Shown here piece by piece: positions 38,919 through 56,936 of a stretch of 64,000 nucleotides of DNA; within the stretch, counting starts at the first letter, position 1; every line of letters starts with the position of its first letter. A model generated the notes under the pieces. It was not told the DNA's origin. It saw only the letters and a list, made by a program, of their open reading frames with translations, and searched no databases. The position numbers and the translations under genes were made by a program. Source of the stretch: Sedimentisphaerales bacterium. Lineage in GTDB: Bacteria; Planctomycetota; Phycisphaerae; Sedimentisphaerales; SM23-30. Location: the NCBI GenBank assembly GCA_963663965.2, contig CAXXFK010000013.1, positions 64,001 through 128,000 of the forward strand, in the 5' to 3' direction.

Positions 38919-40006
38919 TAAACCCGTTCTACGCTTAAGGTTAGGTCGATATTTTACCATGTTGGCTTCGTTTGGTTTTGGATTAGTGTCGCTGCTCTCA
39001 TGGTTTTTTCCTTTCTTTGCGAGAAATACTGTCAATAGTGCCTTGGGGAGGCGGTGGTTAAAAGTAGCAAACTGGAAGTAGCAAGTAGTATATTTTTCAC
39101 GCCAATGAATTGGTGGGTTATTCACGGTTATCTCCTTCTGAGGCGGACCTTCGGCCTGCGGGGTATTATTGGTATCCGCCGGAGGGCGGATGGTCAGTTT
39201 TATCTATCGCTTCAGAGCGATATTCTGGCGGTTCGCCTCTGCGAGGCGTGGTAAAAAATTTTCAAATTCATGTTCGTTACCCAGGGTGGCGCTTGTCCCG
39301 TTACACGGAACTCGCTGACCCTCATAGGGCTATTGTATGCCGGTCCGTTGGGCTGCTTTGGGTTTTCGCCAGTCGGCGGAATGTTAATTTTCATTTTTGT
39401 TAAGCTCAATTAAATTGGAACTCACAGGGCGATAAATCCACCCACAAGCTGCGCTTGAAGGGTGCCACCCAAGGGATAAAGAATATTTTGTTAAGATCAA
39501 TTTATTGTTGAGGTTAGGGTGTTATTTTCTTGTGTTGGCTTCGTTTGGTTTTGGTTGGTATTGGTTACGATCATGGTTTTTTCCTTTTTCTTTTGCGAGA
39601 CATCTGTCGGTACGGCTCGGAGAGGCGGGGGTTAATTTTATCACGCTGAACTCCGTACGTTATTATTGAGCGTGGGCGGTGGCCGGCCTGTGTTTTAGTA
39701 GTGACGGCATTGGAGGGTGGTGTCGGTTGGGGTGTCCTGGGAATTTTCTGCCGGCGTGAATGGTTTTATGTCATTGTTATAATTTTGGTTATAGTCGTGA
39801 TTATTGGTGTTGGGTTCGTTTGGCGCTGGGGGATAGTTGGAGTGGTTGGGGTTGTATTGATGGGGTGTTTGGTTCAAAGGATCGGGATGAGATTCGTAGC
39901 GTTCGTAGCTGGAAGTGTGGTGGTAGTTATGGGTTGGTTTGTCTGTTTCTAAGTTGTTGTTATTATTTGTTTTATGGTCGAATTTGCCGATTTTGGGTTC
40001 GTTTGG
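38919..40006 (+). repeat. Four copies of tripartite motif TA(A/T)R-N17-KTTA-N18-TTGGSTTCGTTTGG
   Basis: 14-mers at 38962, 39535, 39810, 39993; (G/T)TTA exactly 22 bp upstream of each. Confidence 0.9.
39279..39353. repeat. Degenerate CCCAGGG...CCCT(GG)GCT REP-like hairpin element
   Basis: ACCCAGGGTGGCG...CGCTGACCCT...GGGCTAT nested inverted repeat. Confidence 0.45.
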
Positions 40007-40480
40007 CATTGGTTGGGTTTCGGGTTCGTTGTCTGGTTTGGGGGTGGCGTTGGGGTCGCATTGGATGGCGGGGGTGATCTGGTAGCCGGCTTCGAAGAGG
40101 ATTTCTTTGGATTGCTGGATGATCTGCTGGTATTCCAGGTCGGTGGGCGGGCCATCGGGGAGGCAATCTTTGAAGGAGTTGGAAACGGTGATGAATTGCT
40201 GGATGAGTTGGGCGGTGGCGCGGCGGGCGGTGACATTATTGTCAGAACGGGACTGGACGACGAGGCGTTGGAGGGCCTGGTGGCCGGCCCGGGTGGCGCG
40301 GAGTTTATAGTCGCGGCGGTCGTAGGCGATCAGGCCGGCCAGTTCGCAGTGGTAGGAATGGGTGTCGATGATGTACTGGTGTTGGCGGCGGGTGGTGTTG
40401 ATGGTGGCGAGGAAAATGTCATTGATTTCGGGGCGGTGGTAGTATTGGGCACGGGCGAGAATTTGCATGGAACGATTCAT
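39695..40480 (-). CDS. Orphan hypothetical protein with N/P-rich tail containing PNEPK/PNEPN
   Basis: 261-aa ORF with AAAGGAGG RBS and upstream TATAAT; coding strand strongly C/A-rich. Confidence 0.65.
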   Translation of the reverse strand: MNRSMQILARAQYYHRPEINDIFLATINTTRRQHQYIIDTHSYHCELAGLIAYDRRDYKLRATRAGHQALQRLVVQSRSDNNVTARRATAQLIQQFITVSNSFKDCLPDGPPTDLEYQQIIQQSKEILFEAGYQITPAIQCDPNATPKPDNEPETQPMPNEPKIGKFDHKTNNNNNLETDKPTHNYHHTSSYERYESHPDPLNQTPHQYNPNHSNYPPAPNEPNTNNHDYNQNYNNDIKPFTPAENSQDTPTDTTLQCRHY

Positions 40481-40617
40481 GTTATACCTCCTTTTAACCT
40501 TAATAATGTTTTGTGTTTGACCGTTAGTGGCCGACTGTTGGGATTATAGGCTATATTTTAATAAAAGTAAAATAAATAATAATATTATTTAAAAATAATA
40601 CATAATATAAGAAATTT

Positions 40618-40760
40618 TCACCATGAAGGTCATGAAGGGCATGAAGGCAAGAGGAAGAATTAACGGCTGATTTAACCGCAGATTGACACAGATAGACGCA
40701 GATAAAAACAGATTTAAGTTATTAAAATAAAATAAGATATGACCACGGAATACACGGAAG
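40618..40760 (+). repeat. Cluster of short periodic repeats
   Basis: CATGAAGG x3 (9-nt period), CAGAT x4 (10-nt period), CACGGAA x2 (9-nt period). Confidence 0.75.
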
Positions 40761-40839
40761 GCAATCAGGGTGAAGCAGATGAAATCAAAGGAGATAGAAC
40801 TGCGAAAGGGGCGAAAATAAAGGGTGGCGGGGCCACGAG

Positions 40840-42381
40840 TTAAAATTTTTCACCCTGAGTCCATAACTGTGCCAGATGTTCGAGTTCTTTAATAATTGGC
40901 TGGGAGGTTGGTTTATGGTACAAGTTGATTTTTTCATCGGGATCGGTTTTCAGATGATAGAGTACGCCGTCTTTATCGGCGATGCGGTTATCCATAAAGA
41001 ATATCAGTTTCCAATCGCGGGTACGGACCATGACACGCCGACCGCCGCCACGCAGTTCTTCATACATACTCTGGCTATGGTCAATTTCGCTGAAACAGGC
41101 CGGCCGCCATTTTTTGACTTTTCCTTGAATCAGCGGCATTAAACTGCGTCCGCGTATGGTTTGGGGGATATCCAAGCCAGACAGTTCCAATAAGGTGGGC
41201 AGGAAGTCGATCATTTCAACGGGTTCATCGATTACTTTGCCTTTGGGCAGCAGGGCCGGGCAACTCAGGATGAGCGGCGATTTGACATTGGCTTCGTAAA
41301 AGACCCGTTTTTTCCAGAGGCCGTGTTCGCCCAACTGGAATCCCTGGTCGGAGTTGATGGCTATAATAGTATTTTCCAGCAGTCCTTTGGATTTGAGGGC
41401 TTCGATCATGCGGCCTACTTGAACATCGGCCAGGGCCACCATGCCGTAATAAGTGCCCCGACATAAATCGATCTGTTTGCGGGTCAGTTCTAGACCACCA
41501 GCATAGGTTCGTAAGGGGCCTTGCTCAAACCTGGATTTACTGTTGAGTTCTTCCTGAGTGGGCAGAGGCAGATCGATTCCGGCCGGATCGATGAAATATT
41601 CCTTGGGTACATAACAGCCGACATGGGGGGCGTGAAAGGAAACCCGCAGAAAAAAAGGTTCATCCGGGTTCAACTTATCGATGGCGGCAACGGCTATATT
41701 GCCCAGTTGCCAGGTTTCGGTATCCTGCGGTTTGATTTTCTCCGTTCTGGCGCCGATCAGCCAGCCATGGGTCGGGGTTTTTACCATTGGCACATCCAGC
41801 GCAGACATATCATCGCCAAAAATCTTTTTAAATGCGGCGGTTGGACGTCCACAGACATCGAGCAGGGGCAGGGCATCTCCCAGACTCTTCCAGGATCTGG
41901 GGAAGCCATGAATTTTACCAATATTGGCGGGCTGGATTCCGGCCGCGGTCCAGCGGTCCAGCAGATTGGGTTCCCGGTCCAGTTGAGCCATTTGTGAGGC
42001 ATTGAGATAATCTCCCGGCGTTTCGGGGGCTTTGCCCATGGCAACGGGTCCGATTTGATGGGCGTAGAAACCGGTTTTCATGCTGCGCCGTGAGGGAACA
42101 CAGACTGGATTTTGCACAATAGCGGTTTCAAATCGAACGCCATTGGCCGCCAATGCATCCATATGGGATGTTTTTGGCCAGGACCGGCCGTAGCAACCCA
42201 GGGCGTCGGCCCGGCCATCATCGAACATGATCCACAGAATATTTGGTCGTTTTCCATTGATAACCGGTTTATGGGATTTATTCAAAACGTTATTCGTTTG
42301 CCGGCAACCTTCGATTAATCCCAGTCCTGCAGTTGCGGCTGAACTGATTCCGATCTTTTTTAAAAAATGGCGTCTGTTCAT
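40840..42381 (-). CDS. Tat-exported formylglycine-type sulfatase
   Basis: MNRRHFLK Tat motif, RPNILWI, CVPSR (CxPxR), SDQG..LGEHGLW.K, DPDEKINL. Confidence 0.93.
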   Translation of the reverse strand: MNRRHFLKKIGISSAATAGLGLIEGCRQTNNVLNKSHKPVINGKRPNILWIMFDDGRADALGCYGRSWPKTSHMDALAANGVRFETAIVQNPVCVPSRRSMKTGFYAHQIGPVAMGKAPETPGDYLNASQMAQLDREPNLLDRWTAAGIQPANIGKIHGFPRSWKSLGDALPLLDVCGRPTAAFKKIFGDDMSALDVPMVKTPTHGWLIGARTEKIKPQDTETWQLGNIAVAAIDKLNPDEPFFLRVSFHAPHVGCYVPKEYFIDPAGIDLPLPTQEELNSKSRFEQGPLRTYAGGLELTRKQIDLCRGTYYGMVALADVQVGRMIEALKSKGLLENTIIAINSDQGFQLGEHGLWKKRVFYEANVKSPLILSCPALLPKGKVIDEPVEMIDFLPTLLELSGLDIPQTIRGRSLMPLIQGKVKKWRPACFSEIDHSQSMYEELRGGGRRVMVRTRDWKLIFFMDNRIADKDGVLYHLKTDPDEKINLYHKPTSQPIIKELEHLAQLWTQGEKF

Positions 42382-42497
42382 ATTGATGTTCCGGAAAAAT
42401 TGTTCGAGACATATTATCCCATCAGTCTACTTTGTTTTACGGGGATATTGCAATATAAAATATTTTCTGGATAAACAGATCATGAAGCCGGATCAAT

Positions 42498-42528
42498 AAA
42501 AAAAGGCGCCGGCAATAATGCCGACGCC
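42498..42528 (-). terminator. Rho-independent terminator of LamG gene
   Basis: GGCGCCGGCA/TGCCGACGCC stem with A7 on + (U-tail on -). Confidence 0.75.
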
Positions 42529-42563
42529 CGGTAATGGACATTTAGAAACTATCAAACTGAATC

Positions 42564-44723
42564 TTACTGGCAGGTACTTTCCGGATACAGTCCGCAATCC
42601 AGCCATCCAGCGGCCATAATTGCAACGTCGGCAATGGTTACCTGGCAGTCATTATTCAAGTCTGCTTCCGGTTTAACCTGACAAGCGGGAACGCCACCAT
42701 CCGCATAATACTGAGCAGCGATTTCATCCGCGGTCAACGCATAGTTATAGACGCGAATTTCATCCAATTGACCGTTGAAGTAGGCATCATTCCATGCGCT
42801 CTTACCGATGTAGTTGTTTACGCGGGTGATATTGGTCGGCATTGGCATGGTTACCTGAGGCGTATTATGGGTTCCATTCGTGTTAAAGTAATAGTACTGC
42901 AAGCCATTCTTATACAGTTTGGCGACACCCGAGGCATCCTGAGTTGCGGTGAACATCTGCCATTTATCCTGCTCGATGGCTACGGTGCCACGCAGAAGGG
43001 TGTTCTGATTTATGCCAGTGGCATTTCTGAAGATAAAGTTACTAGTGGTGCTTTCACGACTCACGAAGATGTTTTCCAGCGGAGCGCCATTGGAGAACTG
43101 CATGAAGTTGGCCCAGCCACCAGCCGCCGTGGGTTTAGCCCAGAAATTAATGGTGATGCCACCCAGGAAGTTGGCGAAGCCATCCGGCAGGTCAATGTAG
43201 TTCTTATAGGTGTTGGACAGATCAACCGCCTGACCAGATACACCTGCGCTATAGGAGGGCAGAATGTTATCGGGTTCAGTGCCCAGGGTTGCGCCGGTTC
43301 CATGCAATTCGCTACCCGATGCATCGTCGGCATTGCCTTCGAAGGGATAGTAAGCATAGAGACGTTTGACGTAAACCATGACATTGGCTGTAGTTGAAGT
43401 GCCCCCCGTGTTCGTTGCAGTGGCATAGATAAGACCGTCATCGGCGGCCGTCACATTGCTAAAGGTCAGGGTCGATGTGTAGATATCACCATCATTAATA
43501 GTGTCTATCGTGACGTTGCCAACACCAGAGGTCAGTTCTTGATCGGTCTCGCCCATTTCTTTGTACCAATTGATAGTGATATCACTACTGCCTGGAATGG
43601 GTTTTTGTGTGACTAACGTATAAACCGCATCGTCACCCAACATAACATATTGATGAGTTGGAGGAGTGACAATAATGGGTGAATTGGGAAGGGTATCAAA
43701 GGTGTAGGTATAACTGATATACGTCTTACCGTCAGCCGTGGTATCGACTCTCCAATAATAGGTGGTTTCACGATCGAGTGAAGAGAGTGCATGGCTATTG
43801 GCAGTTAGAGCCAGGTTGGCAACAGTGGCGTAAGTCGTCATATTGGCGTTGGGGTCCAGCATATTCGGATCGGTACCTACATAGAGATGATAGCCAGAAG
43901 GCGTGATATCTGAAGCAACCGTCCAACTTAGCGTGGGGTCAGTGGCAACATTTTTTGCACCATCAGTTGGGGTAACGCTTTCTACGACAACCCGATTATA
44001 GGTATCCGGGCCCAAAGTATAGTTGAAGGCAACTTCTTCATCGCTCATGACATGGTCGTAAATACGGAATTCGTTGATGGTACCACTGTAACCAGGGTCA
44101 TTGTACAAGGCGGCGCCAATCAGGGCCATGGAACGAGCCACATTTGTCAATGAATGCTTAGTGGTGATCTCGTCAACCAGTACACCATTTTGATAAAGCC
44201 GCATCTGGGAGGTGGTTTCATCATAGACGCAAACAGCATGGATCTCAACATTTAAAGCGGAATTGTCAGTTTCGGCCCACTGCTCCCCATATTCCTCTAG
44301 GTAACCCGGGATACCACCGGTGGTGATCGAAAAACGGGATGTACCAGCATCAGTGCCGCCGGAGGTGGGAGTGTACATAATGTAATTTCCGCCGTTACTG
44401 CCATCGGTTTCGCCAAAGTCGAAAACGCGCTGCCAGTTCTGATCGATATTGATGGTATACCAGAACTCAATCGATACGCTGGTATAATCGCTCAACACAT
44501 CCGCCGGCAACGCGACGTGTGGCGCGCTTCTTCCACTGGCGCCGGCATTTAATACTAACTGGCCGCCACTGATGGTAGCGCCATTCATCAGGTTACCGTC
44601 TTTGCCACCCACCGAATCAATGGCCAGCGTACCGCCTGTAGTAAAACTATAACGGTTTACCAGTGTTGCCTGCGCTGGAATGATTAAAGCCAGTACGAGC
44701 AAACAAAACAATGCTTTTTTCAT
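42564..44723 (-). CDS. Secreted protein with two LamG/concanavalin-like domains, Ig domain and dockerin-like tail
   Basis: Signal peptide; WQRVFDFG, GTINEFRIYD, YYWRVD, FNGQLDEIRVYNYALT, ADLNNDCQVTIADVAIMAAGWL. Confidence 0.9.
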   Translation of the reverse strand: MKKALFCLLVLALIIPAQATLVNRYSFTTGGTLAIDSVGGKDGNLMNGATISGGQLVLNAGASGRSAPHVALPADVLSDYTSVSIEFWYTINIDQNWQRVFDFGETDGSNGGNYIMYTPTSGGTDAGTSRFSITTGGIPGYLEEYGEQWAETDNSALNVEIHAVCVYDETTSQMRLYQNGVLVDEITTKHSLTNVARSMALIGAALYNDPGYSGTINEFRIYDHVMSDEEVAFNYTLGPDTYNRVVVESVTPTDGAKNVATDPTLSWTVASDITPSGYHLYVGTDPNMLDPNANMTTYATVANLALTANSHALSSLDRETTYYWRVDTTADGKTYISYTYTFDTLPNSPIIVTPPTHQYVMLGDDAVYTLVTQKPIPGSSDITINWYKEMGETDQELTSGVGNVTIDTINDGDIYTSTLTFSNVTAADDGLIYATATNTGGTSTTANVMVYVKRLYAYYPFEGNADDASGSELHGTGATLGTEPDNILPSYSAGVSGQAVDLSNTYKNYIDLPDGFANFLGGITINFWAKPTAAGGWANFMQFSNGAPLENIFVSRESTTSNFIFRNATGINQNTLLRGTVAIEQDKWQMFTATQDASGVAKLYKNGLQYYYFNTNGTHNTPQVTMPMPTNITRVNNYIGKSAWNDAYFNGQLDEIRVYNYALTADEIAAQYYADGGVPACQVKPEADLNNDCQVTIADVAIMAAGWLDCGLYPESTCQ

Positions 44724-45921
44724 AATCGAACTCCTCTAAAATTAAGAAACGGTATCATTGTGCCAATACTGACCCGCTTCTAATCGCCAGTATTGGTGAC
44801 TGTTAAAAAAAAAATGTATGCTAGACCCAAATCAATAAACGTGTCGTCTCTTTTGTCATCATTCTGCTTTTAATCCGTTTAAATGTTTTTTTCGTCGTGA
44901 CAACGTAAAGAAAATATCAAGCAACATATGTCAGCTTACCGATAAAAAAGCCAACTCCTGCCGCTCAATCAACTGGCTACCCACTGTTAAATTTTACGTG
45001 ACACAAATAACGCTTTAATTCACAATTAATTTTAACTTCATTTACAGTGTAATGTCAAGGATATTTCTATATACCGGGACATTTTCATCCTTTTCCATGA
45101 AATTAAGATTCATCAGGGTTAGAGATATTCTGGAAATGAACTGATAAATCTAATTTCATTGCGACTATTCGCGAAAACCAATCGGTATCATAGCTTTTTA
45201 AATCAAAGCTAAACACCTAACACAAAAATGATAACAAATAGAATGATTAAATCATTTCGGTTGAACCATTTATTTCATAGCAACCATACCCTGTACCATG
45301 ATTAGGAAATTGGCATTTTCCAAGTTAACCTTTAAGGTTATCACTATCTTATCGGTTATTGGCGGTCGATTATTATCAGTTAATTTTAATTTGACTTTAA
45401 ACGATCCTAGTGGGCCGCCCAGAGCGGCGCTGCCACCAAAAGCCATGGTTCAATATCTGTTCATAAATGTCACCGAGGTTAACGATTTGACTACAAAAAT
45501 ATTTTTAAGCGTTCAATCAGGTATCGGCGATGTTTGTATACTGGTTTATATTCAGCTATTGATTAAAGGGAACTTGTTCATTCAGAACTGCATGCAAAAA
45601 TCTGAGTACAGCAAGCTGTGCATTTTCCTATAAATGGCGTTATAAAAAACCAGGAATCATATCAAACAGGCTCCAGTTTTGATTTTTGCCAGAGAGAAAC
45701 CATCCTCGCTTTAGCCTCAGTAAGGAACCGCGCAAAAATAACACCTTCATTTCTCATCCCATCTTGCCGCCATCTTCAGTCGCCTCTCAATCGCGAAATC
45801 CTCGACATAGAACAGCACTGCCTGCGGTTTCGCTCAATCGGCGCGACTGAATCTGACAACAAGCTGTGTGATAAATGTAGCATTTATTTATGCGCGGCTC
45901 CTAACGGTAGTTTTGGTGTGA

Positions 45922-46509
45922 TTAATCCAAAGCATTTCCGCAATGGTCACAATATTTAGCATCGGGATCATTTATTTCCTGGCAGGTCGAACATGATTTT
46001 GTTTTTATTAATTTTGCACCGCACTGGTCGCAGAAACGGGCGTTTGTTTCAGCGATATGATTGCATTTGTGGCACCTGATTGTAATGTTTATTTCATTAC
46101 GGCGAATATTTTTATTGGCATTGAATAAGTCTCCCAAGCCTGCTGCGGCAATACCAGTCGCCAGGCCTTCACCCATGGCTTGTGTCGCATGACGGATTCC
46201 TTCCTGAGTTTCGCTGGCCATATAATTGAAGGAATCTTTGGCAACCGGAGCCGTTTCTTCAGCCATAAATCTCATAATTCGTCCGGCGAAACCGATTTGT
46301 GTCATCATTGCGCCTATTCCCAGGAGCGGAATGCCTAAGAATGCACACCAGAACAATCGTGGAGAACCATGGCCGGCAAATGCCAAGAAAAAGTCAATCA
46401 AGCCGATTAATAGTCCTATACCACCTAGAATAATAAAAATGGGACCAATCGTACGTAAAATCGAACGTGGTGTTTTGTGGTTTTTGTCAATTCTGAAATC
46501 TTCTTTCAT
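45922..46509 (-). CDS. Membrane protein with C-terminal double zinc ribbon
   Basis: Two TM helices; CHKC, CDQCG, CSTC, CDHCG. Confidence 0.85.
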   Translation of the reverse strand: MKEDFRIDKNHKTPRSILRTIGPIFIILGGIGLLIGLIDFFLAFAGHGSPRLFWCAFLGIPLLGIGAMMTQIGFAGRIMRFMAEETAPVAKDSFNYMASETQEGIRHATQAMGEGLATGIAAAGLGDLFNANKNIRRNEINITIRCHKCNHIAETNARFCDQCGAKLIKTKSCSTCQEINDPDAKYCDHCGNALD

Positions 46510-46618
46510 TTGGTTTCTCCCACAGAAACTTGAAGAACCCGCATAAAATGCTATAAAAATTTACGTTTATGCCATTTATACTATTGAAAACGACGTAACT
46601 TAAGCAGAAATGTTACAT

Positions 46619-46720
46619 AAAAAAGGTGAAGCAGGGCAGGAGGGGTTTGCTCTGCTTCACCAGCAAAGGAGGAGAAAAGAGAATTTCAGTATTGAATTTC
46701 TAATTAACAGCTTCCTAACT
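46619..46720 (-). ncRNA. Candidate ~100-nt sRNA with anti-Shine-Dalgarno tracts
   Basis: TTGTGC-N18-TATAAT promoter (46756-46727), UCUCCUCCUUU tract, 14-bp terminator stem with CCCCUCC loop and U6. Confidence 0.5.
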
Positions 46721-47013
46721 TCAGGTATTATAATCGACAAAATGGCTTATGCACAAAAAATTATAGCCAAAATTTAAATAAATTTCCATACAAAGGTTAT
46801 ATTTTGCCTAATTTAACATATAAAATTTGCGGCATGTTAAAATGGGTAATTTATTAAAAAGTAAATTTTTTGTTAAATATTATTCTTGCGTAATACAAGT
46901 AAAAAAGTAGTATGGGAGATCTTATTACCGGATCGCAATCGGTTAAATAGAGTGATATGCAAGGTTTGCCAAGTTGAACCTGAAAAAACCATGGGAATTC
47001 ATTGAGGTGTTCC

Positions 47014-48543
47014 ATGTTAGCAAAAATCCCCAGTTCAGCGATGATTGGTATCGAAGCGTTTGAATGTGAAATCGAAGTGGATATCGGTGGTGGTTCGACG
47101 GAGCGGCCAATGATCGTTGGTTTACCTGATACTGCGGTAAAAGAAAGTATTGAGCGGGTTCGGAGCGCCATCAGCAACAGTGGATACCGGTTTCCGGTTG
47201 AATCGATGATCATTAATCTGGCGCCGGCCAATCTAAAGAAAGAAGGTCCGGCCTTTGATCTGCCGATTGCCATTGGGGTCATGGCGGCATCGAATTTCAT
47301 TACCTGTGACCATCTGGTGAAAATTATGATGGTGGGGGAAATGGCTCTTGATGGCCGGATTCGCCCGGTAAAAGGGGCGTTGTCAACCGCTATAATGGCA
47401 AGAGATAACGGCTATACCACGATGATTGTTCCGGCTGATAATGCGCGCGAAGCAGCGGTTGTTCAGGATATTGACGTCATTCCAGTGGGTTCGCTGACGG
47501 AGGCCGTTGGTTTTTTGAACGGTCAGCTGCCCATTGAACCCCTTTGTGTCGATATTGAGCAGGTTTTTGAAGAGTTATCAAGATACGATATCGATTTTTC
47601 AGATGTTAAGGGGCAGGAAGGTGTGAAGCGGGCCGTCACCATTGCCGCGGCGGGCAATCATAATCTATTACTGCTGGGGCCTCCCGGTACCGGAAAAACC
47701 ATGCTGGCCAAGCGTATCCCAACGATATTGCCCGCTCTGACCCTGGAAGAATCGTTAGAAACAACTCGAGTCCATTCTGCAATGGGATTACTGAATAAAA
47801 ACCAGGCGCTTTTAGCCACTCGGCCGGTCCGATTCCCGCATCATTCGGCGAGCGGCCCATCCCTGGTGGGAGGCGGCAGTGTCCCACGTCCGGGAGAACT
47901 CTCTCTGGCCCACCATGGACTGCTATTTCTGGATGAATTTCCGGAATTTAAACGAACCGTTCTGGAAACCATTCGCCAGCCACTCGAAGATGGCACGGTG
48001 ACGATTTCGCGCGCTGCCGGCACTATCACATTTCCAGCGGATTTTATGTTAGTTGCCGCGATGAATCCCTGTCCATGCGGCTACTTGACAGATCCCAAGC
48101 GTAAATGTAAATGCACCCCCATCCAGATAGAGCGCTATTTATCCAGGATTTCCGGTCCTCTGGTGGATCGGATCGACATTCATGTTGAAGTTCCAGCGGT
48201 GCCTTTCAATGAGTTGCAAAGCAAGCAGGATGGCACTGGTTCACAAACCATGCGTGAGCAGGTGATTATGGCCCGTCAGATCCAAGCCCGCCGGTTTAAT
48301 GGTGATGGCATTTTTACCAACGCCCGCATGAACAGCAGGATGATTCGCAAGTATTGCCAGCTTGACCAGGCCGGTCTGGATACCATCAAGCAGGCGGTTT
48401 ATGAGATGGGGCTCAGCGCCAGGGCTCATGACAAAGTGCTTAAAATCGCACGGACAATTGCGGATCTTGACAATATAGGCGACGTCCAATCCTGTCATGT
48501 TCAGGAAGCGATCCAGTACAGGCGTCTGGACCGTAAGTTTTAA
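47014..48543 (+). CDS. comM: YifB/ComM family Mg-chelatase-like AAA+ ATPase
   Basis: IVGLPDTAVKES.ERV, NLAPA, GPPGTGKT, PGELSLAHHGLLFLDE, AAMNPCPCG. Confidence 0.93.
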   Translation: MLAKIPSSAMIGIEAFECEIEVDIGGGSTERPMIVGLPDTAVKESIERVRSAISNSGYRFPVESMIINLAPANLKKEGPAFDLPIAIGVMAASNFITCDHLVKIMMVGEMALDGRIRPVKGALSTAIMARDNGYTTMIVPADNAREAAVVQDIDVIPVGSLTEAVGFLNGQLPIEPLCVDIEQVFEELSRYDIDFSDVKGQEGVKRAVTIAAAGNHNLLLLGPPGTGKTMLAKRIPTILPALTLEESLETTRVHSAMGLLNKNQALLATRPVRFPHHSASGPSLVGGGSVPRPGELSLAHHGLLFLDEFPEFKRTVLETIRQPLEDGTVTISRAAGTITFPADFMLVAAMNPCPCGYLTDPKRKCKCTPIQIERYLSRISGPLVDRIDIHVEVPAVPFNELQSKQDGTGSQTMREQVIMARQIQARRFNGDGIFTNARMNSRMIRKYCQLDQAGLDTIKQAVYEMGLSARAHDKVLKIARTIADLDNIGDVQSCHVQEAIQYRRLDRKF

Positions 48544-48710: not shown

Positions 48711-49391
48711 ATGAGCCAATTTGCCGGTGACAAGAAAGTGGGGCAATCGATTTTGGGGCCCATTGAAACCCGTTTTAAGAACGCGTTAGTGCCTCATTTT
48801 CCCAAATGGATCGAAACGTACCATTTAACACTGACCACAATTCTCTGGTCGGCCGGCATGGTTCTTTTTGGGTGGTTAACGCGTCGTCATCCAGCCTGGA
48901 CTTTTGGGATGTCAGTGATGCTGGTATTGCAATACCTGACCGATTTGTTCGATGGGGCGTTGGGGCGGTATCGGGATACGGGGCTTGTCAAGTGGGGGTT
49001 CTTTATGGACCATTTTTTGGATTTTATTTTTTCCGGTTCGATTGTCATTGCCTATGCCATGATGGCTCCGGAAGAGGTCAGCTTGTACTATTTTTTCGGC
49101 CTGATTCTTTGCAGCGGTGGATTCATGGTCAATTCTTTCCTTAACTTCGCTTCTACCAATGAGTTCCAGATATGTTTCTGGGGTATCGGGCCGACCGAAA
49201 TCCGGTTGGTTTATGTCATTATCAATACCATTATTTTTATCTGGGGGGTTGGGATTTTTAAAATTTGGGTCCCCATGTTATTTGTATTGAATTTGCTTTC
49301 TCTGGTGGTTATGATTTTCCGGTCACAGCAGAGGCTGTGGAGTATAGATATGACCGTAAAAAATAATCGAAAGGAGCCTGACAATGGCTAA
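48711..49391 (+). CDS. CDP-alcohol phosphatidyltransferase family protein
   Basis: DLFDGALGRYR....KWGFFMDHFLD signature; multiple TM helices. Confidence 0.9.
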   Translation: MSQFAGDKKVGQSILGPIETRFKNALVPHFPKWIETYHLTLTTILWSAGMVLFGWLTRRHPAWTFGMSVMLVLQYLTDLFDGALGRYRDTGLVKWGFFMDHFLDFIFSGSIVIAYAMMAPEEVSLYYFFGLILCSGGFMVNSFLNFASTNEFQICFWGIGPTEIRLVYVIINTIIFIWGVGIFKIWVPMLFVLNLLSLVVMIFRSQQRLWSIDMTVKNNRKEPDNG

Positions 49392-49746
49392 TGAAATTAT
49401 TGTCGAACTCAATGGATCTCAGTATAAGTTGCTGTCTTCCCTGGTTGATGAATTATATTCTGATGATACCAGTCTGGCCAGTCGAATTAAAAAACTCAGC
49501 AAAACGGAAGGTTACTATGAACTAACCCTGGGTGTAGAAGAATTGAGTACTATGTGCGAAGCAATAGCCGATGTGGCCAACCAGGAAGAGGATGCTCGTA
49601 AACAGAATAAGATTTTCGACCTGGTCGATTATCTGGAAGATGTTCTGTATGAAAACACCGAAGAGGTGGAAGATGAGGAAGACTGGGACGATGATGATGA
49701 GGAATGGGACGATGCCGATGAAGACGAATGGGATGATGAAGAATAG
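49384..49746 (+). CDS. Very acidic hypothetical protein
   Basis: AAGGAG RBS, overlaps upstream stop; C-terminal D/E tract with periodic W. Confidence 0.75.
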   Translation: MANEIIVELNGSQYKLLSSLVDELYSDDTSLASRIKKLSKTEGYYELTLGVEELSTMCEAIADVANQEEDARKQNKIFDLVDYLEDVLYENTEEVEDEEDWDDDDEEWDDADEDEWDDEE

Positions 49747-49807
49747 GATTTATCAACGCGTTCAGTCTGATCATTTAGCATGCTATTGACGCTGGCAAAT
49801 CATTTAG

Positions 49808-49851
49808 AAAAATCACATTCGAGACGGTAACTATCGTCTCGAATGTCTTTT
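49808..49851. terminator. Bidirectional terminator between convergent genes
   Basis: ACATTCGAGACGGTA/TATCGTCTCGAATGT stem flanked by A- and T-runs. Confidence 0.7.
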
Positions 49852-49856
49852 AGAAA

Positions 49857-50486
49857 TCACTTCAATTCGACAGTCCAATAGGCATGGTCAAGGAACTGTT
49901 TCCACGATCGGTAGCGACCATCGGTGAGATTAAGGCCAAGAACGGGAGAACGGTTGGGGCGTATTGGTTTTTTAATCAATTTCATGTTTGCTTCTTCCGG
50001 AGTGCGACTTCCTTTCCTGGTATTGCATTTTACGCAACAGCATACCAGGTTATTCCAACTGGCTTCTCCGCCCTGACAACGAGGAATCACATGGTCCAGA
50101 TTCAATTCAACCGTAGCAAACCGTCCGCCGCAATACTGACAGCGATTATGATCGCGGGCATAGATATTGCGCCGATTTAATTTTACTGATCCACGAGGCA
50201 ATCGGTCGTAAAATAACAACCTAACAATACGGGGGACGGCAATACTGATACGCACGCCGTGCAGCCAGTCGTGGGCATCGGGTTGAAATTCTTTTTTGAT
50301 TTGTGAGATATCGACCCAACTGGAGAAATCGTAATTGCTATAGCGGCCATCATCATATTCAACTACTTCTGCCAGACGGCGGCACAAAAGTGAGATAGCC
50401 CGTTTTACATTGACTACTCGTATAGCCATGTAATGTTTGTTCAACACCAGCACCTGACAATCCAAGGCTGTTGCATTGGCCAGCAT
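49857..50486 (-). CDS. HNH endonuclease (McrA-like, HNH_5)
   Basis: VLVLN, RRNIYARD..RCQYCG, LDHVIPR, WNNLVCCCVKCNTRKG.RTPEEA. Confidence 0.92.
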   Translation of the reverse strand: MLANATALDCQVLVLNKHYMAIRVVNVKRAISLLCRRLAEVVEYDDGRYSNYDFSSWVDISQIKKEFQPDAHDWLHGVRISIAVPRIVRLLFYDRLPRGSVKLNRRNIYARDHNRCQYCGGRFATVELNLDHVIPRCQGGEASWNNLVCCCVKCNTRKGSRTPEEANMKLIKKPIRPNRSPVLGLNLTDGRYRSWKQFLDHAYWTVELK

Positions 50487-50761
50487 AACATTCTCCTGTA
50501 AAAACGCTAAATTGCCATGTGGTTAAGTATTATCATAACCGAGGTCAAAGATTCGTACAAGTTAAATTAACGTCAGAATGCTGTTCAGAATTCATTGTAT
50601 GTTAATCACACAGCCAAATTGGCATATCAGGGAAGTAATATGATTGATAAATGGGTTAAAAGTTCTGCCATTATGGCATGAAATTTTGGCGCAAAATATT
50701 TTAAATGGCGCCATGATTTATAAGTTGTTACAAAATAACGAATTGTGATTTTGTTAGATTC

Positions 50762-50777
50762 TGGCACACAATTTGCA
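50762..50777 (+). promoter_or_regulatory. Sigma54 (-24/-12) promoter of hsp20
   Basis: TGGCACACAATTTGCA with exact GG-N10-GC spacing. Confidence 0.75.
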
Positions 50778-50839
50778 AATTAGATAAGCAGTAACGAAAT
50801 AATAAATTCAGGTGATACTTTTAAGAAAGGAGACTCATT

Positions 50840-51274
50840 ATGTTACCTGTACTGAACAAAAAATCTATTGAACCGTTTGCTCGTAATCCTCTTATTAATG
50901 CCATGGATCGTCTGATGGATGAAATGTTTACCGATGGTTTTGCCCTGGTGGAAACCGGCGGCCGAATGGACATGTATGAAGCGGGCGACAAATTATATGT
51001 CGAAGCTGAAGTGCCCGGTTTTAAACATGACGAACTGGATTTAAGCCTGGAAAACAATGTCCTGACTGTCAAAGCAGAGCAAAGAATCGAAGAAGAAGAC
51101 AAAAACGTAAATTATTACATCCGTGAGCGCCGTCGTCAACGGTGGGCCCGATCGATCCGGTTGCCCGTCAATGTGGACAACAACAAGATTAACGCATCAT
51201 TTAATGATGGTATTCTCAAAATCGAAATGGAAAAGGCCGAAGTGGCGAAGGCCCATAAAATCCAGATTAAATAA
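50840..51274 (+). CDS. Hsp20/alpha-crystallin small heat-shock protein
   Basis: DMYE, AEVPG, RERR, ASFNDGILKI, C-terminal IQI; AAAGGAG RBS. Confidence 0.95.
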   Translation: MLPVLNKKSIEPFARNPLINAMDRLMDEMFTDGFALVETGGRMDMYEAGDKLYVEAEVPGFKHDELDLSLENNVLTVKAEQRIEEEDKNVNYYIRERRRQRWARSIRLPVNVDNNKINASFNDGILKIEMEKAEVAKAHKIQIK

Positions 51275-51381
51275 CACTATCGCTTTGGCCTGACGGTAAG
51301 CGGCCTGGCCAGCTATGACAACAGCTTACCGGTTAACAGCAAATTCTTACTTTCGTTCATTGAATAACGACTCCTTTTCGG

Positions 51382-51415
51382 AAACCGTCGCGTCAGCCAG
51401 CGCGACGGTTTTTTT
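51382..51415 (+). terminator. Rho-independent terminator
   Basis: AAACCGTCGCG/CGCGACGGTTT stem plus T-run. Confidence 0.85.
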
Positions 51416-51548
51416 GTCGATCCTGATTAAAATTTTGACAAAGCTATTGAAATTGCCGGATCAGATTGATAAGATAAATAATATCCAAGCTTAAGGTTGT
51501 CTTATTATTCTGTTATCCGCATTTAATTGATGCGGGGGGAGATTCAAA

Positions 51549-52235
51549 ATGAAGAAGATTGTGGTTGTTATTTCGGTTCTATTGTTTGTCACTCCTAGCC
51601 TTGTTCTGGCTAATATATCCGGTCCAGTGTTTCCAGCTCCGGGTGGCGTGTCTTATACCATGACCGGCAATATTGCCCGGGCAGGAGGATTAACCATATC
51701 TTTTACCGGTCTTAATCCCTCAAATTATGACCAACTCTGGTGGGGGCCATGGGATGCTTCCAGCGTCTATCTGGATCTGGATAATCTTTATGAACGCACT
51801 GGCGACGTCACTACGCTTGCTTATAATCCAACTCGCGGTGTCTGGGAAGGGAGTTCCTGGATCCATCTTTTCAGTGAATCTACTCCAAGTTACAATCAAT
51901 ACTATACTCGATTAAAGGTATCGGGGGTGTCATTGATCGATTCGTCAACGATTGGACTGACAGATATAAATCATCCAGATGCCGTAGCGGAAATTACCGG
52001 GACCAGTTTTTCTGTCACCTTGATTTTTGAAGCGGCCCAGTATCAGAGTGGACCCTGGACACCCGCTTTGGACCTTTTTGACAGTTTGAGTACGATACCT
52101 GGTCACCAGGTTGACGCTTTGTTTTCGGGGGGATTTTTCTATACGAGCAGTGCGGTTCCGGCTCCGGGGGCGATGATGCTGGCCGGGTTGGGCACGGGTT
52201 TGGTTGGCTGGGTACGACGCCGTCGCCTGGAATAA
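51549..52235 (+). CDS. Secreted protein with PEP-CTERM-like (VPAPGA) sorting signal
   Basis: Signal peptide; C-terminal VPAPGAMMLAGLGTGLVGWVRRRR. Confidence 0.88.
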   Translation: MKKIVVVISVLLFVTPSLVLANISGPVFPAPGGVSYTMTGNIARAGGLTISFTGLNPSNYDQLWWGPWDASSVYLDLDNLYERTGDVTTLAYNPTRGVWEGSSWIHLFSESTPSYNQYYTRLKVSGVSLIDSSTIGLTDINHPDAVAEITGTSFSVTLIFEAAQYQSGPWTPALDLFDSLSTIPGHQVDALFSGGFFYTSSAVPAPGAMMLAGLGTGLVGWVRRRRLE

Positions 52236-52248
52236 TGCGAAAATTCAC

Positions 52249-52515
52249 TCAATCGTGGTCGAAGACCATTTTCTGGCATTCAACACCTTCGACCTGGTTG
52301 AGTTTATACATTAACTCGAAGCAGGTGTGGTTATCGCCAATCATTTCGAGTAGCACTAATCCATTGGGGGAACAGACCGTATCGCTGGCTTCATGCAAGC
52401 CAAGGCGGGTCTTGATATTACATCCATATTCAGTAAATAAGCGCTGAATTTCTGTGACATGTTTGATTCGGTCGGTAATGTGAACTCCCAGAATAATATG
52501 ATCTTTCCTGGTCAT
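52249..52515 (-). CDS. Small ACT-like protein (TM1266/iron-only hydrogenase system regulator-like)
   Basis: GVHITDR, Q..FTEYGCNIKTRLGLHE; AAGGA RBS. Confidence 0.7.
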   Translation of the reverse strand: MTRKDHIILGVHITDRIKHVTEIQRLFTEYGCNIKTRLGLHEASDTVCSPNGLVLLEMIGDNHTCFELMYKLNQVEGVECQKMVFDHD

Positions 52516-52627
52516 GATCGATCCTTTCGCGCAGTAAATAACGAATGGTAATTGTTGATTATTGTCAGATCGGTATTATAATAGTCTGTCAAAAAGAATT
52601 TTCCAGTCATTTTTCAGGGAGTATTCC

Positions 52628-53626
52628 ATGAGTTATGAACCAAATCCTCAACGATATGATGCCATGATCTATAACCGATGCGGTCGTAGTGGCTTGAAAT
52701 TACCGGCGATTTCGTTGGGTTTATGGATCAATTTTGGTGGGGTGGACGATTATGAAAACAGCCGCGCCATGATCCGGCGAGCTTTTGACCTGGGGATCAC
52801 CCATTTTGATCTGGCCAATAATTATGGTCCGCCGCCCGGTTCGGCTGAGACGATTTTTGGTCAGATTCTAAAAACCGATCTGGCAAATTATCGTGATGAG
52901 TTAATTATTTCGAGCAAGGCGGGTCATCTGATGTGGGACGGGCCTTATGGCGATTGGGGCTCCCGGAAATACCTGATGGCGTCACTGGACCAGTCGCTGG
53001 GGCGGATGGGTCTGGATTATGTCGATATTTTTTATCATCACCGTTTCGATCCAGAAACGCCGTTGGAAGAGACCATTTCGGCCCTGGCGGATATTGTGCG
53101 GCAGGGGAAGGCGCTGTATGTGGGGCTTTCCAAATATCCGCCCGCTGAGGCCCAGGTTGCGGTTGCGATGTTGAAGCAATTGGGGATTAATTGTTTGATT
53201 CATCAGCAACGTTATTCCATGCTGGTCCGTCATATCGAGACAGGTTTGCTTGACGTCGTGAAGAATCAGGGGACCGGCTGTATTGTTTTTTCGCCACTGG
53301 CCAAAGGGTTACTGACGGACAAGTATCTGAAAGGTATTCCCAATGGCTCGCGCGCCGCCAAGCCGCATGGTTTTATTCAGCGTGATGAACTGTCCAGTGA
53401 GCTGCTTAATAAAGTTCATGAGTTGAATAAAATTGCCGAATGGCGCGGGCAGAGTCTGGCGCAGATGGCCATTGCCTGGTGTTTGCGTCATGATCAGATT
53501 ACCTCGGTTTTGACAGGGGCCAGTTCGGTTGCGCAGATCGAGGCGAACATCGCCAGTCTGCAAAACACCCATTTTACCGATGAAGAACTGGAGGCGATCG
53601 ATCAGATATTGGCGGAGATTCAATAG
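52628..53626 (+). CDS. Aldo/keto reductase, L-glyceraldehyde-3-phosphate reductase (Gpr/YghZ-like)
   Basis: RCGRSGLKLPAISLGLW, FDLANNYGPPPGSAE, GSRKYL, FSPLAKGLLT; GGGAG before ATG 52628. Confidence 0.92.
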   Translation: MSYEPNPQRYDAMIYNRCGRSGLKLPAISLGLWINFGGVDDYENSRAMIRRAFDLGITHFDLANNYGPPPGSAETIFGQILKTDLANYRDELIISSKAGHLMWDGPYGDWGSRKYLMASLDQSLGRMGLDYVDIFYHHRFDPETPLEETISALADIVRQGKALYVGLSKYPPAEAQVAVAMLKQLGINCLIHQQRYSMLVRHIETGLLDVVKNQGTGCIVFSPLAKGLLTDKYLKGIPNGSRAAKPHGFIQRDELSSELLNKVHELNKIAEWRGQSLAQMAIAWCLRHDQITSVLTGASSVAQIEANIASLQNTHFTDEELEAIDQILAEIQ

Positions 53627-53669
53627 GCAGGGCAGAATATTTCCAACTTGATCCAGTTGATAAAATTCT

Positions 53670-54524
53670 ATGAAATCAAAACATTCAGGCAAGTCAAAAG
53701 CATTCAATAAACCCGCTTTGCGGATCCAAGTAACCACTTTGTGGGAATATCCCTCCCAGCATTATGGCGAGTCGGTCCAGGGGGATCCTGATTACCGGGG
53801 GGCAACTCCGAGTTATATTATCTGGAATCTGCTGCAGCGCTACACGAAGGAAAAGGATCTGGTTATTGATCCGATGTGCGGCAGTGGAACGACTCTGGAT
53901 GTCGCGCGGGATTTAAAGCGGCGGGCTTTGGGATATGATGTCAATCCAACCCGGCCGGATATTTTCAGAGTGGATGCCCGGAAGCTGCCGCTGGAAGATG
54001 AGAAGGCGGATTTTGTATTTATCGATCCGCCTTATTCGACTCATATCGATTACAGTGATGATCCGCGTTGCGTCGGGAAACTGCATGCCGGAAGTCCGGA
54101 GTATTATGAGGCGATGCGGTTGGTGATAGGGGAGATCCATCGGATCTTAAGGCCGGACCGCTATATGGGGCTTTATGTCAGCGATTCGCATGAGCCGAAG
54201 AAGGGATTCTTTCCGATCGGGTTTGAGTTGTTTGCCATTCTGCGTGAATATTTTGAGCCGGTGGATATTATTGCGGTGGTGCGGCATAACCGGACGCTGG
54301 AAATGGGAAATTATCGCAAGGCGGCTGAGGAGGGTAATTTTTTTCTGAGGGGATTTAACTATCTTTTTATTATGCGCAAGCCGGAGAAAAAGGTAGTGAC
54401 AAGGCCAAAAGAAACCGGGATTGATCAAGCGGGTAAAGACAGCAGTGTACCCAAGGCGGGATCAAAAGCTAATACAACTCAGGCCAGGCGACGCCGGCCA
54501 CCGGCGCGGCATAATCGTAAGTAG
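53670..54524 (+). CDS. Orphan SAM-dependent amino-methyltransferase (N4/N6 DNA or TRM11-like)
   Basis: DPMCGSGTT motif I followed by DPPY motif IV. Confidence 0.85.
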   Translation: MKSKHSGKSKAFNKPALRIQVTTLWEYPSQHYGESVQGDPDYRGATPSYIIWNLLQRYTKEKDLVIDPMCGSGTTLDVARDLKRRALGYDVNPTRPDIFRVDARKLPLEDEKADFVFIDPPYSTHIDYSDDPRCVGKLHAGSPEYYEAMRLVIGEIHRILRPDRYMGLYVSDSHEPKKGFFPIGFELFAILREYFEPVDIIAVVRHNRTLEMGNYRKAAEEGNFFLRGFNYLFIMRKPEKKVVTRPKETGIDQAGKDSSVPKAGSKANTTQARRRRPPARHNRK

Positions 54525-54559
54525 CTTGTTTGTAGGAAGATACGGTTTTTATGAAAATT

Positions 54560-54590
54560 AAAAAGCCCGACAGGACTGATCCTGCCGGGC
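54560..54590 (-). terminator. Rho-independent terminator of serA
   Basis: GCCCGACAGGA/TCCTGCCGGGC stem with A5 on + strand. Confidence 0.7.
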
Positions 54591-54661
54591 CGATGGTCTG
54601 CTAAAACTCAGTATTTCGGTCTGGTTTCAGAGACTTTATCTCAGGTGTTAAAGCAAGTTGT

Positions 54662-56254
54662 TTATTTAACTTTGGGCAACTGGCATACGAAAACCGATTT
54701 GACGAAATCCTGTTTCTGGAATTCGGCAATGGCGGCGGCATCCGGGGCGGCATCGAGGCTGATAGCCAGAACGGCGCTATCCGCAACACGGCCGACACCC
54801 ATGGTACCGATATTCAGTTTATGCTTGCCACAGATGGAACCGACGGCGCCAATCACACCGGGGCGGTCATCATTGAAGATGACCATAATGGTGCCTTCGG
54901 GTGACATTTCCAGCGCGAAGTCATCAATGCCAATGACGCGCGGGATACGTTTGTCGATGATGGTTCCCACAATTTTACGATCGACCTGATCGGTCACGAT
55001 GCGAATGGTCAGCGTGCTGGAGAAATCGCCGGCATCGGGATTTTTGACTTCATCCACGCTCAAGTTACGCTGTTTGGCGATGATGGGGGCGTTGACTTCG
55101 TTGACACCTTCTTCGATCTTTCCCTGCAAGATACCGATCATGGCACTGATGGTAATGGCCGAGATGTTATGTTCGGCGATTTCACCCCGGTAACCGACTT
55201 CCAGTTTCTTGATACTGCCCGGCGCGATGGAACTGAGAATTTTGCCCATGCGTTCGGCCAGGACACGATAGCGCTTGACCTGTTCGGGCAGGGATTTGTC
55301 GAGACCGGGTACATTGACGGCGTTGCGGATCTGGGTGCCGCGAATGGCATCGACCAGTTCTTTGGCGGCATCGACGGCCACTTCGATCTGGGCTTCTTCG
55401 GTACTGGCGCCCAAGTGGGGTGTGACAATACAGTTATCGAGCTTTTCGAACCGGCGGTTGGTGGGAGGTTCTTCGGCGAAGACATCGAGGGCGGCGCCGG
55501 TGATGCGTTTGGATTCGAGGGCGTCGTAAAGATCGTCTTCGTTGATGACCGCGCCACGGGCGACGTTGATGATCCGGGCGTTTGGCTTCATTTCGCTGAT
55601 CAGTTCTTTATTGATCATCCCGCGGGTCTGATCGGTCACGGGAACGTGCAGGGTGATAAAATCGCTAACCCGGCAGAGTTCTTTGAGGTCGGTGACGACT
55701 TCAACGCCTTCCTGTTCGGCGACTTCGGGTGCGGCGACCGGATCATAGCCAACGATATTCATTTTGAGGCCCATGGCGCGACGAGCCACGCTCATGCCGA
55801 TACGTCCCAGACCGATGACGCCGAGGGTTTTGCCCAAAAGCTGGGTACCCATATAGGTTTTGCGGTCCCATTTGCCACCTTTGAGCGAGGCATTGGCCTG
55901 GGGGATAAAGCGGGAGGCGGCCATCATGAGGGCCACGGTGTGTTCGGCGGCGCTGATGGTGTTGCCATCGGGGGTGTTCATGACGATGACACCTTTTTGG
56001 GTGGCGACGGGGATATCGACATTGTCGACACCGACGCCGGCACGGGCCACGCCTTTGAGGCGGCCGGGATTTTCCAGTACTTTGGCGGTTACTTTTGAGC
56101 CGCTACGGATAATCAGGCCGTCGTATTCGCCGATGATCGAGGCCAGTTCCTCTTCGCTGATGCCCACTTTTTCGGTCAGTTCTACATCGTCCTGGCTTTT
56201 GAGCCAATCGAGGCCTTCTTTTGCCAGTTTATCGGTTACCAATATTTTTATCAC
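54662..56254 (-). CDS. serA: D-3-phosphoglycerate dehydrogenase (long form, ASB+ACT)
   Basis: RAGVGVDNVD, GLGRIG, NVARG, TPHLGASTEEAQ, DRPGVIG ACT domain. Confidence 0.97.
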   Translation of the reverse strand: MIKILVTDKLAKEGLDWLKSQDDVELTEKVGISEEELASIIGEYDGLIIRSGSKVTAKVLENPGRLKGVARAGVGVDNVDIPVATQKGVIVMNTPDGNTISAAEHTVALMMAASRFIPQANASLKGGKWDRKTYMGTQLLGKTLGVIGLGRIGMSVARRAMGLKMNIVGYDPVAAPEVAEQEGVEVVTDLKELCRVSDFITLHVPVTDQTRGMINKELISEMKPNARIINVARGAVINEDDLYDALESKRITGAALDVFAEEPPTNRRFEKLDNCIVTPHLGASTEEAQIEVAVDAAKELVDAIRGTQIRNAVNVPGLDKSLPEQVKRYRVLAERMGKILSSIAPGSIKKLEVGYRGEIAEHNISAITISAMIGILQGKIEEGVNEVNAPIIAKQRNLSVDEVKNPDAGDFSSTLTIRIVTDQVDRKIVGTIIDKRIPRVIGIDDFALEMSPEGTIMVIFNDDRPGVIGAVGSICGKHKLNIGTMGVGRVADSAVLAISLDAAPDAAAIAEFQKQDFVKSVFVCQLPKVK

Positions 56255-56624
56255 AGCATTACCCTTTCATAAAAAGCCGTATAAACTTGTCTTTTCAACC
56301 AGTTCCTCATACTTCTAAGGACCTGTGATTATGGTGATCGCACTTTATTTTGTCCAGTATTTTTCAGGGCTCTTTGTCGGGAATTAGAAGAAAAAGGGGA
56401 GGGGAATGGCTATTTAATATTTACCTGGTTCGGATAAACTGTTATTGAAGAAAAAATATCTCACATGAAGGCGCGATGGCACGAAGGCAAGAAGACGAGC
56501 AGGCGAGTAGAAAAGTAGGTAAGAAGTTAAGAAGGTCAAAACGGCGGGGGGATGGGGCAGGGGTGGATTGACCTGGATATTCGGTTTCGGGGATAAGCGT
56601 CAACATTGTTTCTGATATGGCGTG

Positions 56625-56936
56625 TATGTCAATTGCATATAATGAGTTACGAGATTGTTTTTTGTCATTGGGTTCGTTTGGCGTTGGTGGTTGTTTACGA
56701 GGGTGGATCGGTATGGGAGGCTGGTGGTATCGCAAGCGGGTGGCCTGAGATGGATTGCCAGGTGGGAGGAGGATACGCTGAAAAACAGTCATACAGGCCG
56801 GTTTAACGGGGGGAGCGGTTGGGGGGATGATTTGGCTTGAGGGAGTCCTGATAAAATAACTTGTAAGAGAAAAACGCTATAAGGGATAGTAATATAATTG
56901 GTTATGATCGATCTGGCCGGCGTTGGGTTCGTTTGG
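56625..56936 (+). repeat. Two further copies of the tripartite motif
   Basis: TATG-N17-GTTA-N18-TTGGGTTCGTTTGG (56625-56681) and TAAG-N17-GTTA-N18-TTGGGTTCGTTTGG (56880-56936). Confidence 0.9.

Follow-up and report, generated by a model that had tools for sequence, protein, structure and literature searches.

A 57-bp tripartite DNA motif occurs six times on one strand of a 64,000-nucleotide stretch of a Sedimentisphaerales bacterium (assembly GCA_963663965.2; positions 64001-128000 of contig C13 of the host genome, here called the window). In our judgement the chances are about even that the motif is a pac/cos-like packaging-start signal, carried on minimal selfish cassettes that steer a domesticated particle resembling a gene transfer agent (GTA). 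We read it in this way because two unrelated carrier genes, the open reading frames ORF-A and ORF-B, both point to the small terminase subunit (TerS), because the bacterial order holds a split packaging machine, and because the pac site of phage P22 lies inside its TerS gene, as described in excerpts of PMC9611059.

The motif in the window and in the host genome

Read on the minus strand, the motif has the form C(C/G)AAAC(G/A)AA(C/G)CCAA - N18 - TA(A/T)(C/A/G) - N17 - N(T/A)TA, with a 14-bp core followed after 18 bp by a symmetric TAA-N19-TTA block. The original prediction had placed six 14-mers at 38962, 39535, 39810, 39993, 56668 and 56923 on the same strand, and we found all of them there. 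No further match with up to one mismatch exists on either strand of the window, where an order-4 Markov model expects 0.002 copies. None of the six sites departs from the 18-bp and 17-bp spacings, and the reading frames were described correctly (two copies in one ORF, two in micro-ORFs in another frame, two without a credible ORF), with the qualification that the copy at 56668 lies in an ORF of 116 amino acids (aa) that matches no family.

Across the host genome the exact core was observed 105 times, with 0.15 expected (order-5 Markov model). Both downstream blocks are present behind 52 of these exact cores; with a relaxed definition of the core the count is 145 of 288. The original prediction regarded 14-mers without the fixed 18/17 spacing as evidence against it, and about half of the cores are indeed of this kind; in these the blocks are missing rather than shifted, with offset peaks only at 18 and 39. 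The motif forms 133 clusters. Adjacent pairs of sites are co-oriented in 153 of 155 cases. Of the 145 full sites, 50 lie within 1.5 kb of a copy of ORF-A and 35 within 1.5 kb of a copy of ORF-B (together 85), all on the strand of the gene. A simple gene caller leaves 137 of the 145 outside genes. The motif is read in several frames, and at the 3' ends of homologous genes it occurs in either direction, which upholds the proposal that conservation concerns the DNA and not the peptide. The host genome yielded no second core at a fixed distance. In three sequencing runs, of which assembled contigs only were used, joints were found only within repeats.

Several classes of element were considered and rejected. 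A sigma-54 promoter with an IHF site (GG-N10-GC, -24/-12) does not fit, as the GC position is unconserved and would lie 9 bp from the GG. Ends of an insertion sequence (IS) or of a miniature inverted-repeat transposable element (MITE) were dismissed because inspection by eye revealed no terminal inverted repeats, target-site duplication or cognate transposase at the cassette ends; unlike such ends, the motif sites are direct, internal and multiple within cassettes. An integron attC array was set aside as a doubtful fit: by eye the two spacers are not complementary, and the reverse core was not found. Five near-identical genes of 316-358 aa resemble transposases associated with repetitive extragenic palindromes (REP; Y1 type) and lie at C20:163917, C25:217482, C29:187335, C30:15504 and C33:124404; such copies may account for the hairpins inside cassette leaders.

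The putative bend block

A TA[AT]-N19-[TA]TA arrangement was counted behind 162 cores; alternative spacings from 15 to 23 gave 13-53. Among 62 distinct full sites, A/T tracts recur every ~10-11 bp. The R-x-E-x-R residues of IHF-beta read TTR, and the single HU/IHF gene of the host genome encodes R-L-E-F-R where IHF-beta has R-I-E-I-R. A homodimer of such an IHF-beta-like protein would want TTR on both arms, which would give a TAA-N19-TTA dyad. Excerpts of PMC8421141 describe IHF as wrapping 35 bp: one arm holds the WATCARNNNNTTR consensus, the other an A-tract. The sequence data fit the original proposal that a specific core is phased with an IHF-like bend site.

ORF-B and the small terminase

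The original prediction had found no cognate enzyme in the window. This did not hold, since ORF-B, which carries two of the sites, is by profile comparison a homolog or copy of the small terminase of the host. In relatives, a gene of ~140 aa precedes the gene of the large terminase (TerL), and 8 of 10 of its proteins scanned matched TerS families in PHROGs, with E down to 2e-10. Searching the six-frame translation of the host genome with a profile of 23 of the relatives' TerS sequences ranked two satellite-borne TerS first and the ORF-B copies next, above all else (12 matches with E 6e-4 to 2e-3 and one more at 0.38). An hhalign comparison of ORF-B with the relatives' TerS gave 85% and E 6e-6 over 83 columns in a co-linear alignment. 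A structural model of ORF-B, built on its alignment with these TerS, yielded weak viral fold matches (E>0.2), among which TerS was the commonest named function. Direct searches of ORF-B in Pfam, NCBIfam and PHROGs revealed nothing significant.

ORF-B is present at 14 loci in the genome, a few of them broken or short, and its ratio of non-synonymous to synonymous polymorphism (pN/pS) is 0.15 (95 codons, 10 copies). The start of the window copy at 40480 is immediately preceded by a ribosome-binding site. The genome has a single TerL match, and the gene immediately before it is the most diverged copy of ORF-B (C30:124448-123912). At this locus (C30:124448-121989) sites are located in the 3' end of the TerL-adjacent ORF-B copy, and a core lies behind TerL. 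Promoter-like matches number 45 in the genome: 23 at ORF-A, 14 at ORF-B and 8 at neither. ORF-B may have gained the motif by fusion with an ORF-A-type cassette. The homology of ORF-B to TerS points to DNA packaging more than to the attachment, transposon-end or partition sites proposed originally.

Two islands that resemble phage-inducible chromosomal islands (PICI), C22:88738-92851 and C24:2173-6845, both contain an integrase and a TerS of the same helix-turn-helix (HTH) family, and the latter also has primase-like and AAA helicase-like genes. No exact motif core was found beside the TerS genes of these two islands.

ORF-A, the second carrier family

ORF-A is a gene of 279 aa with 26 full copies in the genome that are 94-100% identical to the query. 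Its cassettes share a common left end with the promoter and a common right end ~80 bp past the stop codon; they hold a core-only site in the 3' part of the gene and a mosaic, hairpin-rich leader with full sites. Inspection of the cassette ends by eye gave no sign of a target duplication. The copies show 89-96% DNA identity and a pN/pS of 0.07, and they are mosaic, with about half of the site pairs failing the four-gamete test even when less than 50 bp apart.

A search with the ORF-A profile detected 52,899 clusters (50% identity) at E<=0.001. The family bears no Pfam, NCBIfam or PHROG name, direct searches gave nothing significant, and the ESM Atlas returned unnamed clusters only. Among the weak PHROG matches of individual members, three TerS PHROGs are in the top five (7 of 120 members). 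Among phages the only match comes from Bacillus phage vB_BboS-125, where the matching gene precedes TerL and portal. The N-terminal motif of ORF-A is TerS-like, a likeness that spans ~41 residues only. Four copies of residues 1-180 were predicted to associate head-to-tail with a score of 0.76, against 0.00 for the best control; the runs agree in at least 86% of contacts, with a pLDDT (predicted local distance difference test) of at least 70. In the calibration, 20 of 30 solved homodimers and 1 of 23 single chains attained the mark for self-binding, counts that hold here only roughly because the four-copy job differs from it. According to excerpts of PMC9611059, TerS proteins oligomerise via helical hairpins.

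In three loci (L139:3164-4435, L140:3670-5004 and L250:86-1381) the gene directly upstream of an ORF-A relative encodes a fusion of an annealing protein (ERF or Rad52) with DUF968. In L139 and L140 a core lies between the two genes, a layout which we take to resemble the HNH-cos-TerS arrangement. On plasmid NZ_CP016487.1 (L143:23-5933) an integrase, a primase (PriCT-2) and an ORF-A relative follow each other in a satellite-like row, in which no core was found. Eleven genomes of one family of the phylum (f37; L153-L163) contain an ORF-A relative, mostly in single copy, from which the N-terminal motif is lost and near which no core occurs; it may be a domesticated form.

Packaging and head loci of the host

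The packaging locus of the host (C30:122206-130730, minus strand) encodes a regulator, an ABC-ATPase, an acetyltransferase-like protein, TerS and TerL. A separate head locus at C30:195.4-199.4 kb (195449-199417, plus strand) comprises portal, scaffold, major capsid and further genes, and PHROGs confirmed the identities of portal, scaffold and capsid. In relatives, TerL is preceded by a sigma-like regulator, the ABC-ATPase, the acetyltransferase-like gene, ParB and the ~140-aa gene. No replication or integration genes lie beside the packaging and head genes of the host. These genes were found by context and with the SPP1_portal profile; the Terminase_6N, HK97-type portal, Phage_capsid and Portal_Mu profiles missed them, in searches of which one left its control unmatched as well, and a screen of C3-rich ORFs did not reveal the head genes.

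TerL is present in 136 of 151 genomes of the order (114 of the 118 of high quality), nearly always as one match per genome, and its named homologs are labelled Sedimentisphaerales, Phycisphaerales or Planctomycetota. The major capsid protein was detected in 122 of the 151 genomes at 60-75% identity, with full-length matches and nearly always once; the SPP1-type portal was found in five of five genomes. The observation of a split covers loci L271, L273 and L320 as well. Judged by gene content, the split GTA-like system is conserved across the order.

The motif in other genomes

We collected 107 loci around ORF-A relatives (80 from metagenomes, 3 viral and 24 from genomes; 436 kb). They contain 109 matches to the relaxed core, against 7 for reversed-pattern controls. 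Most of these cores lie less than 500 bp from the 3' end of the gene, some in opposite orientation, and many loci have none. In these loci a spacer of 23-24 bp separates the core from the bend block, and another core often lies 89-91 bp on. The spacing, which had been described as rigid, is so within a lineage and varies between lineages: the inner N17 is fixed in other genomes, and the distance from core to block is mostly 22-24 bp, compared with 18 bp in the host. The exact 18/17 pattern was found in 0 of 300 genomes in a sample of the phylum and in 2 of 150 of the order, a rarity that is misleading because the spacing differs by lineage. With a spacer of 17-25 bp, 60 of the 150 other genomes of the order match, with up to 109 copies. 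An ORF-A gene is present in 31 of the 34 genomes with at least three motif copies and in 26 of the 116 others, by a hand count in which kin are not independent. Many genomes have 1-3 ORF-A matches and 20-109 motif copies. The 18-bp form recurs in Tepidisphaeraceae, in other Planctomycetota and at a Rhodospirillaceae locus beside an ORF-A gene.

Matches from the scan of the collection with the exact pattern were rejected as mostly chance or low-complexity repeats. Four IMG/VR contigs (L015, L020, L024 and L035) hold long low-complexity tracts of 9-bp repeats that match the core by chance and are not the motif.

The proposed packaging function and its alternatives

If the motif is a packaging-start signal, a TerS oligomer would read the 14-bp core and the single IHF-beta-like homodimer of the host would bend the adjacent TAA-N19-TTA block; TerL would cut near the site, and packaging would proceed one way. 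The carriers would be cassettes, each with a promoter, a TerS-type gene and co-oriented sites, together with many gene-less copies. The host would produce a GTA-like particle, with TerL from one locus and portal, scaffold and capsid from another, that begins headful packaging at these sites. A cassette and its flanking DNA would then be over-represented in particles and could spread by recombination in the recipients, which would fit mosaic copies under purifying selection.

Several results weigh against such a signal. On the side of ORF-A, the hhalign match to the vB_BboS-125 family (97%) covers only 41 columns, and the comparison family was picked for that match. The protein has no HTH and no profile match to the native TerS or to ORF-B, and its model is a helical hairpin with no significant sequence or fold match in the PDB, the best (Z 8.2) being to a generic helical hairpin. 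Its relatives are rare in viral contigs (3 loci) and their neighbours are mostly unrelated housekeeping genes; a Pfam search found no terminase among 127 flanking proteins, with one Pfam terminase profile that also missed the host TerL. On the side of the host, no core was found in 16-kb windows around TerL in any of the 12 relatives; 28 of 30 shorter TerL loci lack it too, as does the head locus in three of three genomes. The link between native TerS and motif is thus seen in this genome only. The host TerL also has a frame shift ~20 residues short of the point where its relatives end, which is either real or an assembly error. Among the sites, 60 of 145 full copies are orphans, and 62 distinct sites match the E. 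coli IHF consensus only modestly, with a median of 3 mismatches in 9 positions. Excerpts of PMC7947584 describe the GTA of Rhodobacter capsulatus (RcGTA) as lacking discrete start sites. Finally, packaging by itself leaves it unexplained how copies come to be inserted at new loci; no target-site duplications were seen by eye. The annealase near ORF-A relatives could supply the missing integration step.

An alternative that we regard as rather unlikely is that a MITE- or cassette-like, non-autonomous mobile element uses the motif for recombination or as its end, and moves within the cell with no need of a particle: an IHF-bent loop would join two direct-repeat cores, and a TerS-like ring would serve as architectural protein for a nuclease, perhaps TerL or a host recombinase. 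Co-oriented arrays, mosaic modules between sites and the common left and right ends of ORF-A cassettes agree with this, as do the second core ~89-91 bp on in other lineages, with the bend block between the two cores, and the genomes in which 1-3 ORF-A matches accompany 20-109 motif copies. However, the cassettes contain no transposase or recombinase, and of the 16 tyrosine-recombinase and 11 Y1-transposase matches of the genome none was seen inside one (coordinates compared by eye). Identical recent copies are absent (maximum 96% identity), the host genome has no second core at a fixed distance, and the TerS likeness of both carrier genes would be left unexplained.

It appears more doubtful still that the motif is an operator or nucleoid-organising site of a host or cassette regulator, or intergenic clutter like bacterial interspersed mosaic elements (BIME), with TerS genes associated by hitch-hiking. 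The position of 137 of the 145 full sites outside called genes, their setting among REP-like hairpins and the 60 orphans would suit it; strict strand coherence, the placement at the 3' end of one protein family in unrelated metagenome loci, a patchy distribution that tracks ORF-A, and sites within coding sequence in different frames would not. We consider least probable, and indeed improbable, a packaging interference or defence, in which stand-alone TerS proteins and sites would be retained by the host as decoys that titrate or misdirect a terminase, either that of an incoming phage or that of the host particle. Purifying selection on dispersed copies, the Abi, HEPN, restriction or PIN genes that adjoin some ORF-A relatives, and the size of a family nearly absent from viral contigs speak for decoys, whereas neighbours are mostly housekeeping genes and a copy number from 0 to >100 among relatives fits selfish spread better.

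The packaging-start reading can be widened, at somewhat less than even confidence, to a cross-phylum class of minimal selfish elements made of a TerS gene and an IHF-phased packaging signal. Such elements would parasitise GTA-like particles that hosts have domesticated, or passing phages, and bias which chromosomal DNA is packaged; in this host the TerS of the GTA itself would have turned into one (13 extra loci), and the ORF-A family of ~53,000 clusters would be the universal version. If true, this would assign a function to a large unannotated bacterial protein family (52,899 clusters) and offer a first sequence handle on the cargo of a conserved Phycisphaerae virus-like particle. It makes the sharp prediction that particle DNA starts at the sites and runs one way, and bears on how 'selfless' gene transfer agents kept by their hosts resist, or are exploited by, cheaters. 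A compact pair of TerS and site that redirects packaging would also be of practical use in bacteria for which genetic tools are scarce. Neither the motif nor the ORF-A family nor a planctomycete GTA was found described in a literature search with most subscription journals and supplements outside its coverage.

Further features of the window

The coordinates of the sites and associated features are given in Table 1. Rfam detected only two tRNAs in the window at gathering score and no known structured RNA at the motif. A GLUG-repeat protein (35533-38727, minus strand) is encoded directly downstream of the ORF-B cassette; 12 proteins related to it adjoin motif clusters in the genome, which hints at a preferred neighbourhood or at co-duplication. 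Short high-copy tandem direct repeats, presumably of the GxxExxY-associated type, are located at 40620-40760, upstream of the ORF-B cassette, and at 45740-45870. They raise contig depth in the assembled sequencing runs.

Table 1. Motif sites and associated features of the window.
Feature	Positions	Strand	Basis
Full site 1; core 38962-38975, N18 and TAA-N19-TTA block; terminates a non-coding module	38919..38975	-	
Full site 2; within a hairpin-rich non-coding module	39492..39548	-	
Full site 3; within the P/N-rich 3' tail of ORF-B	39767..39823	-	
Full site 4; within the ORF-B tail, 183 bp from site 3	39950..40006	-	
Full site 5; 'orphan' pair; inside a 116-aa ORF (56442-56792) without family match	56625..56681	-	
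Full site 6; 'orphan' pair	56880..56936	-	
Sigma-70-like promoter match upstream of the orphan pair, possibly of a decayed cassette	57138..57166	-	consensus match only
Two ORF-less mosaic modules with REP-like hairpins and one site each; type found in ORF-A leaders	38872..39694	-	
Ribosome-binding site and ATG where the ORF-less modules end	38855-38871		
ORF-B, 261 aa; copy of the small terminase (TerS) of the host in its N-terminal ~135 aa, with a low-complexity site-bearing tail	39695..40480	-	profile of relatives' TerS
Sigma-70-like promoter TTGAC/TTTAC-N17-19-TATAAT, common to ORF-A and ORF-B cassettes	40543..40571	-	consensus match only

Comparison with known systems

The cos region of phage lambda contains an IHF site in cosB. 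Like pac and cos sites of phages (the pac of P22 and SPP1 lies in or near the TerS gene), the motif is an asymmetric, oriented site in or beside a TerS gene with a putative block for a bending protein, and TerS and TerL are adjacent at one locus. A site in or beside a TerS gene upstream of TerL is found at C30:124448-121989 and in none of the 12 relatives. Phage pac and cos sites occur once per virus, whereas ~145 copies are dispersed over this chromosome; no viral genome, integrase or replication genes accompany them, and half of the cores are without a bend block.

Phage satellites of the SaPI/PICI type encode their own TerS and redirect the packaging of another element. The cassettes likewise have a TerS-type gene without capsid genes and a presumed cognate site, and could redirect the TerL and capsid of another element. 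They differ in their size of ~1.5-2.5 kb with one gene only, in that no integrase, primase/helicase, regulator or att sites were seen, in their number of up to 40 per genome, and in the presumed helper, which would be a particle owned by the host and not a prophage. With GTAs of the RcGTA type the predicted host system shares single-copy, conserved and split packaging and head loci. The RcGTA TerS is described in excerpts of PMC7947584 as having no specific DNA-binding domain, whereas the native TerS here matches HTH-type TerS families; in one genome it has undergone multiplication and goes together with a specific, repeated site.

The BIME-1/RIP (RIB) elements of E. coli are mosaic intergenic repeats that combine hairpins with an IHF site, and REP-IHF-REP dyads are tied to RAYT transposases. 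The repeats described here are similarly mosaic and intergenic, with hairpins and a putative IHF-type site, but their motif is asymmetric, strand-coherent and tied to TerS-type genes.

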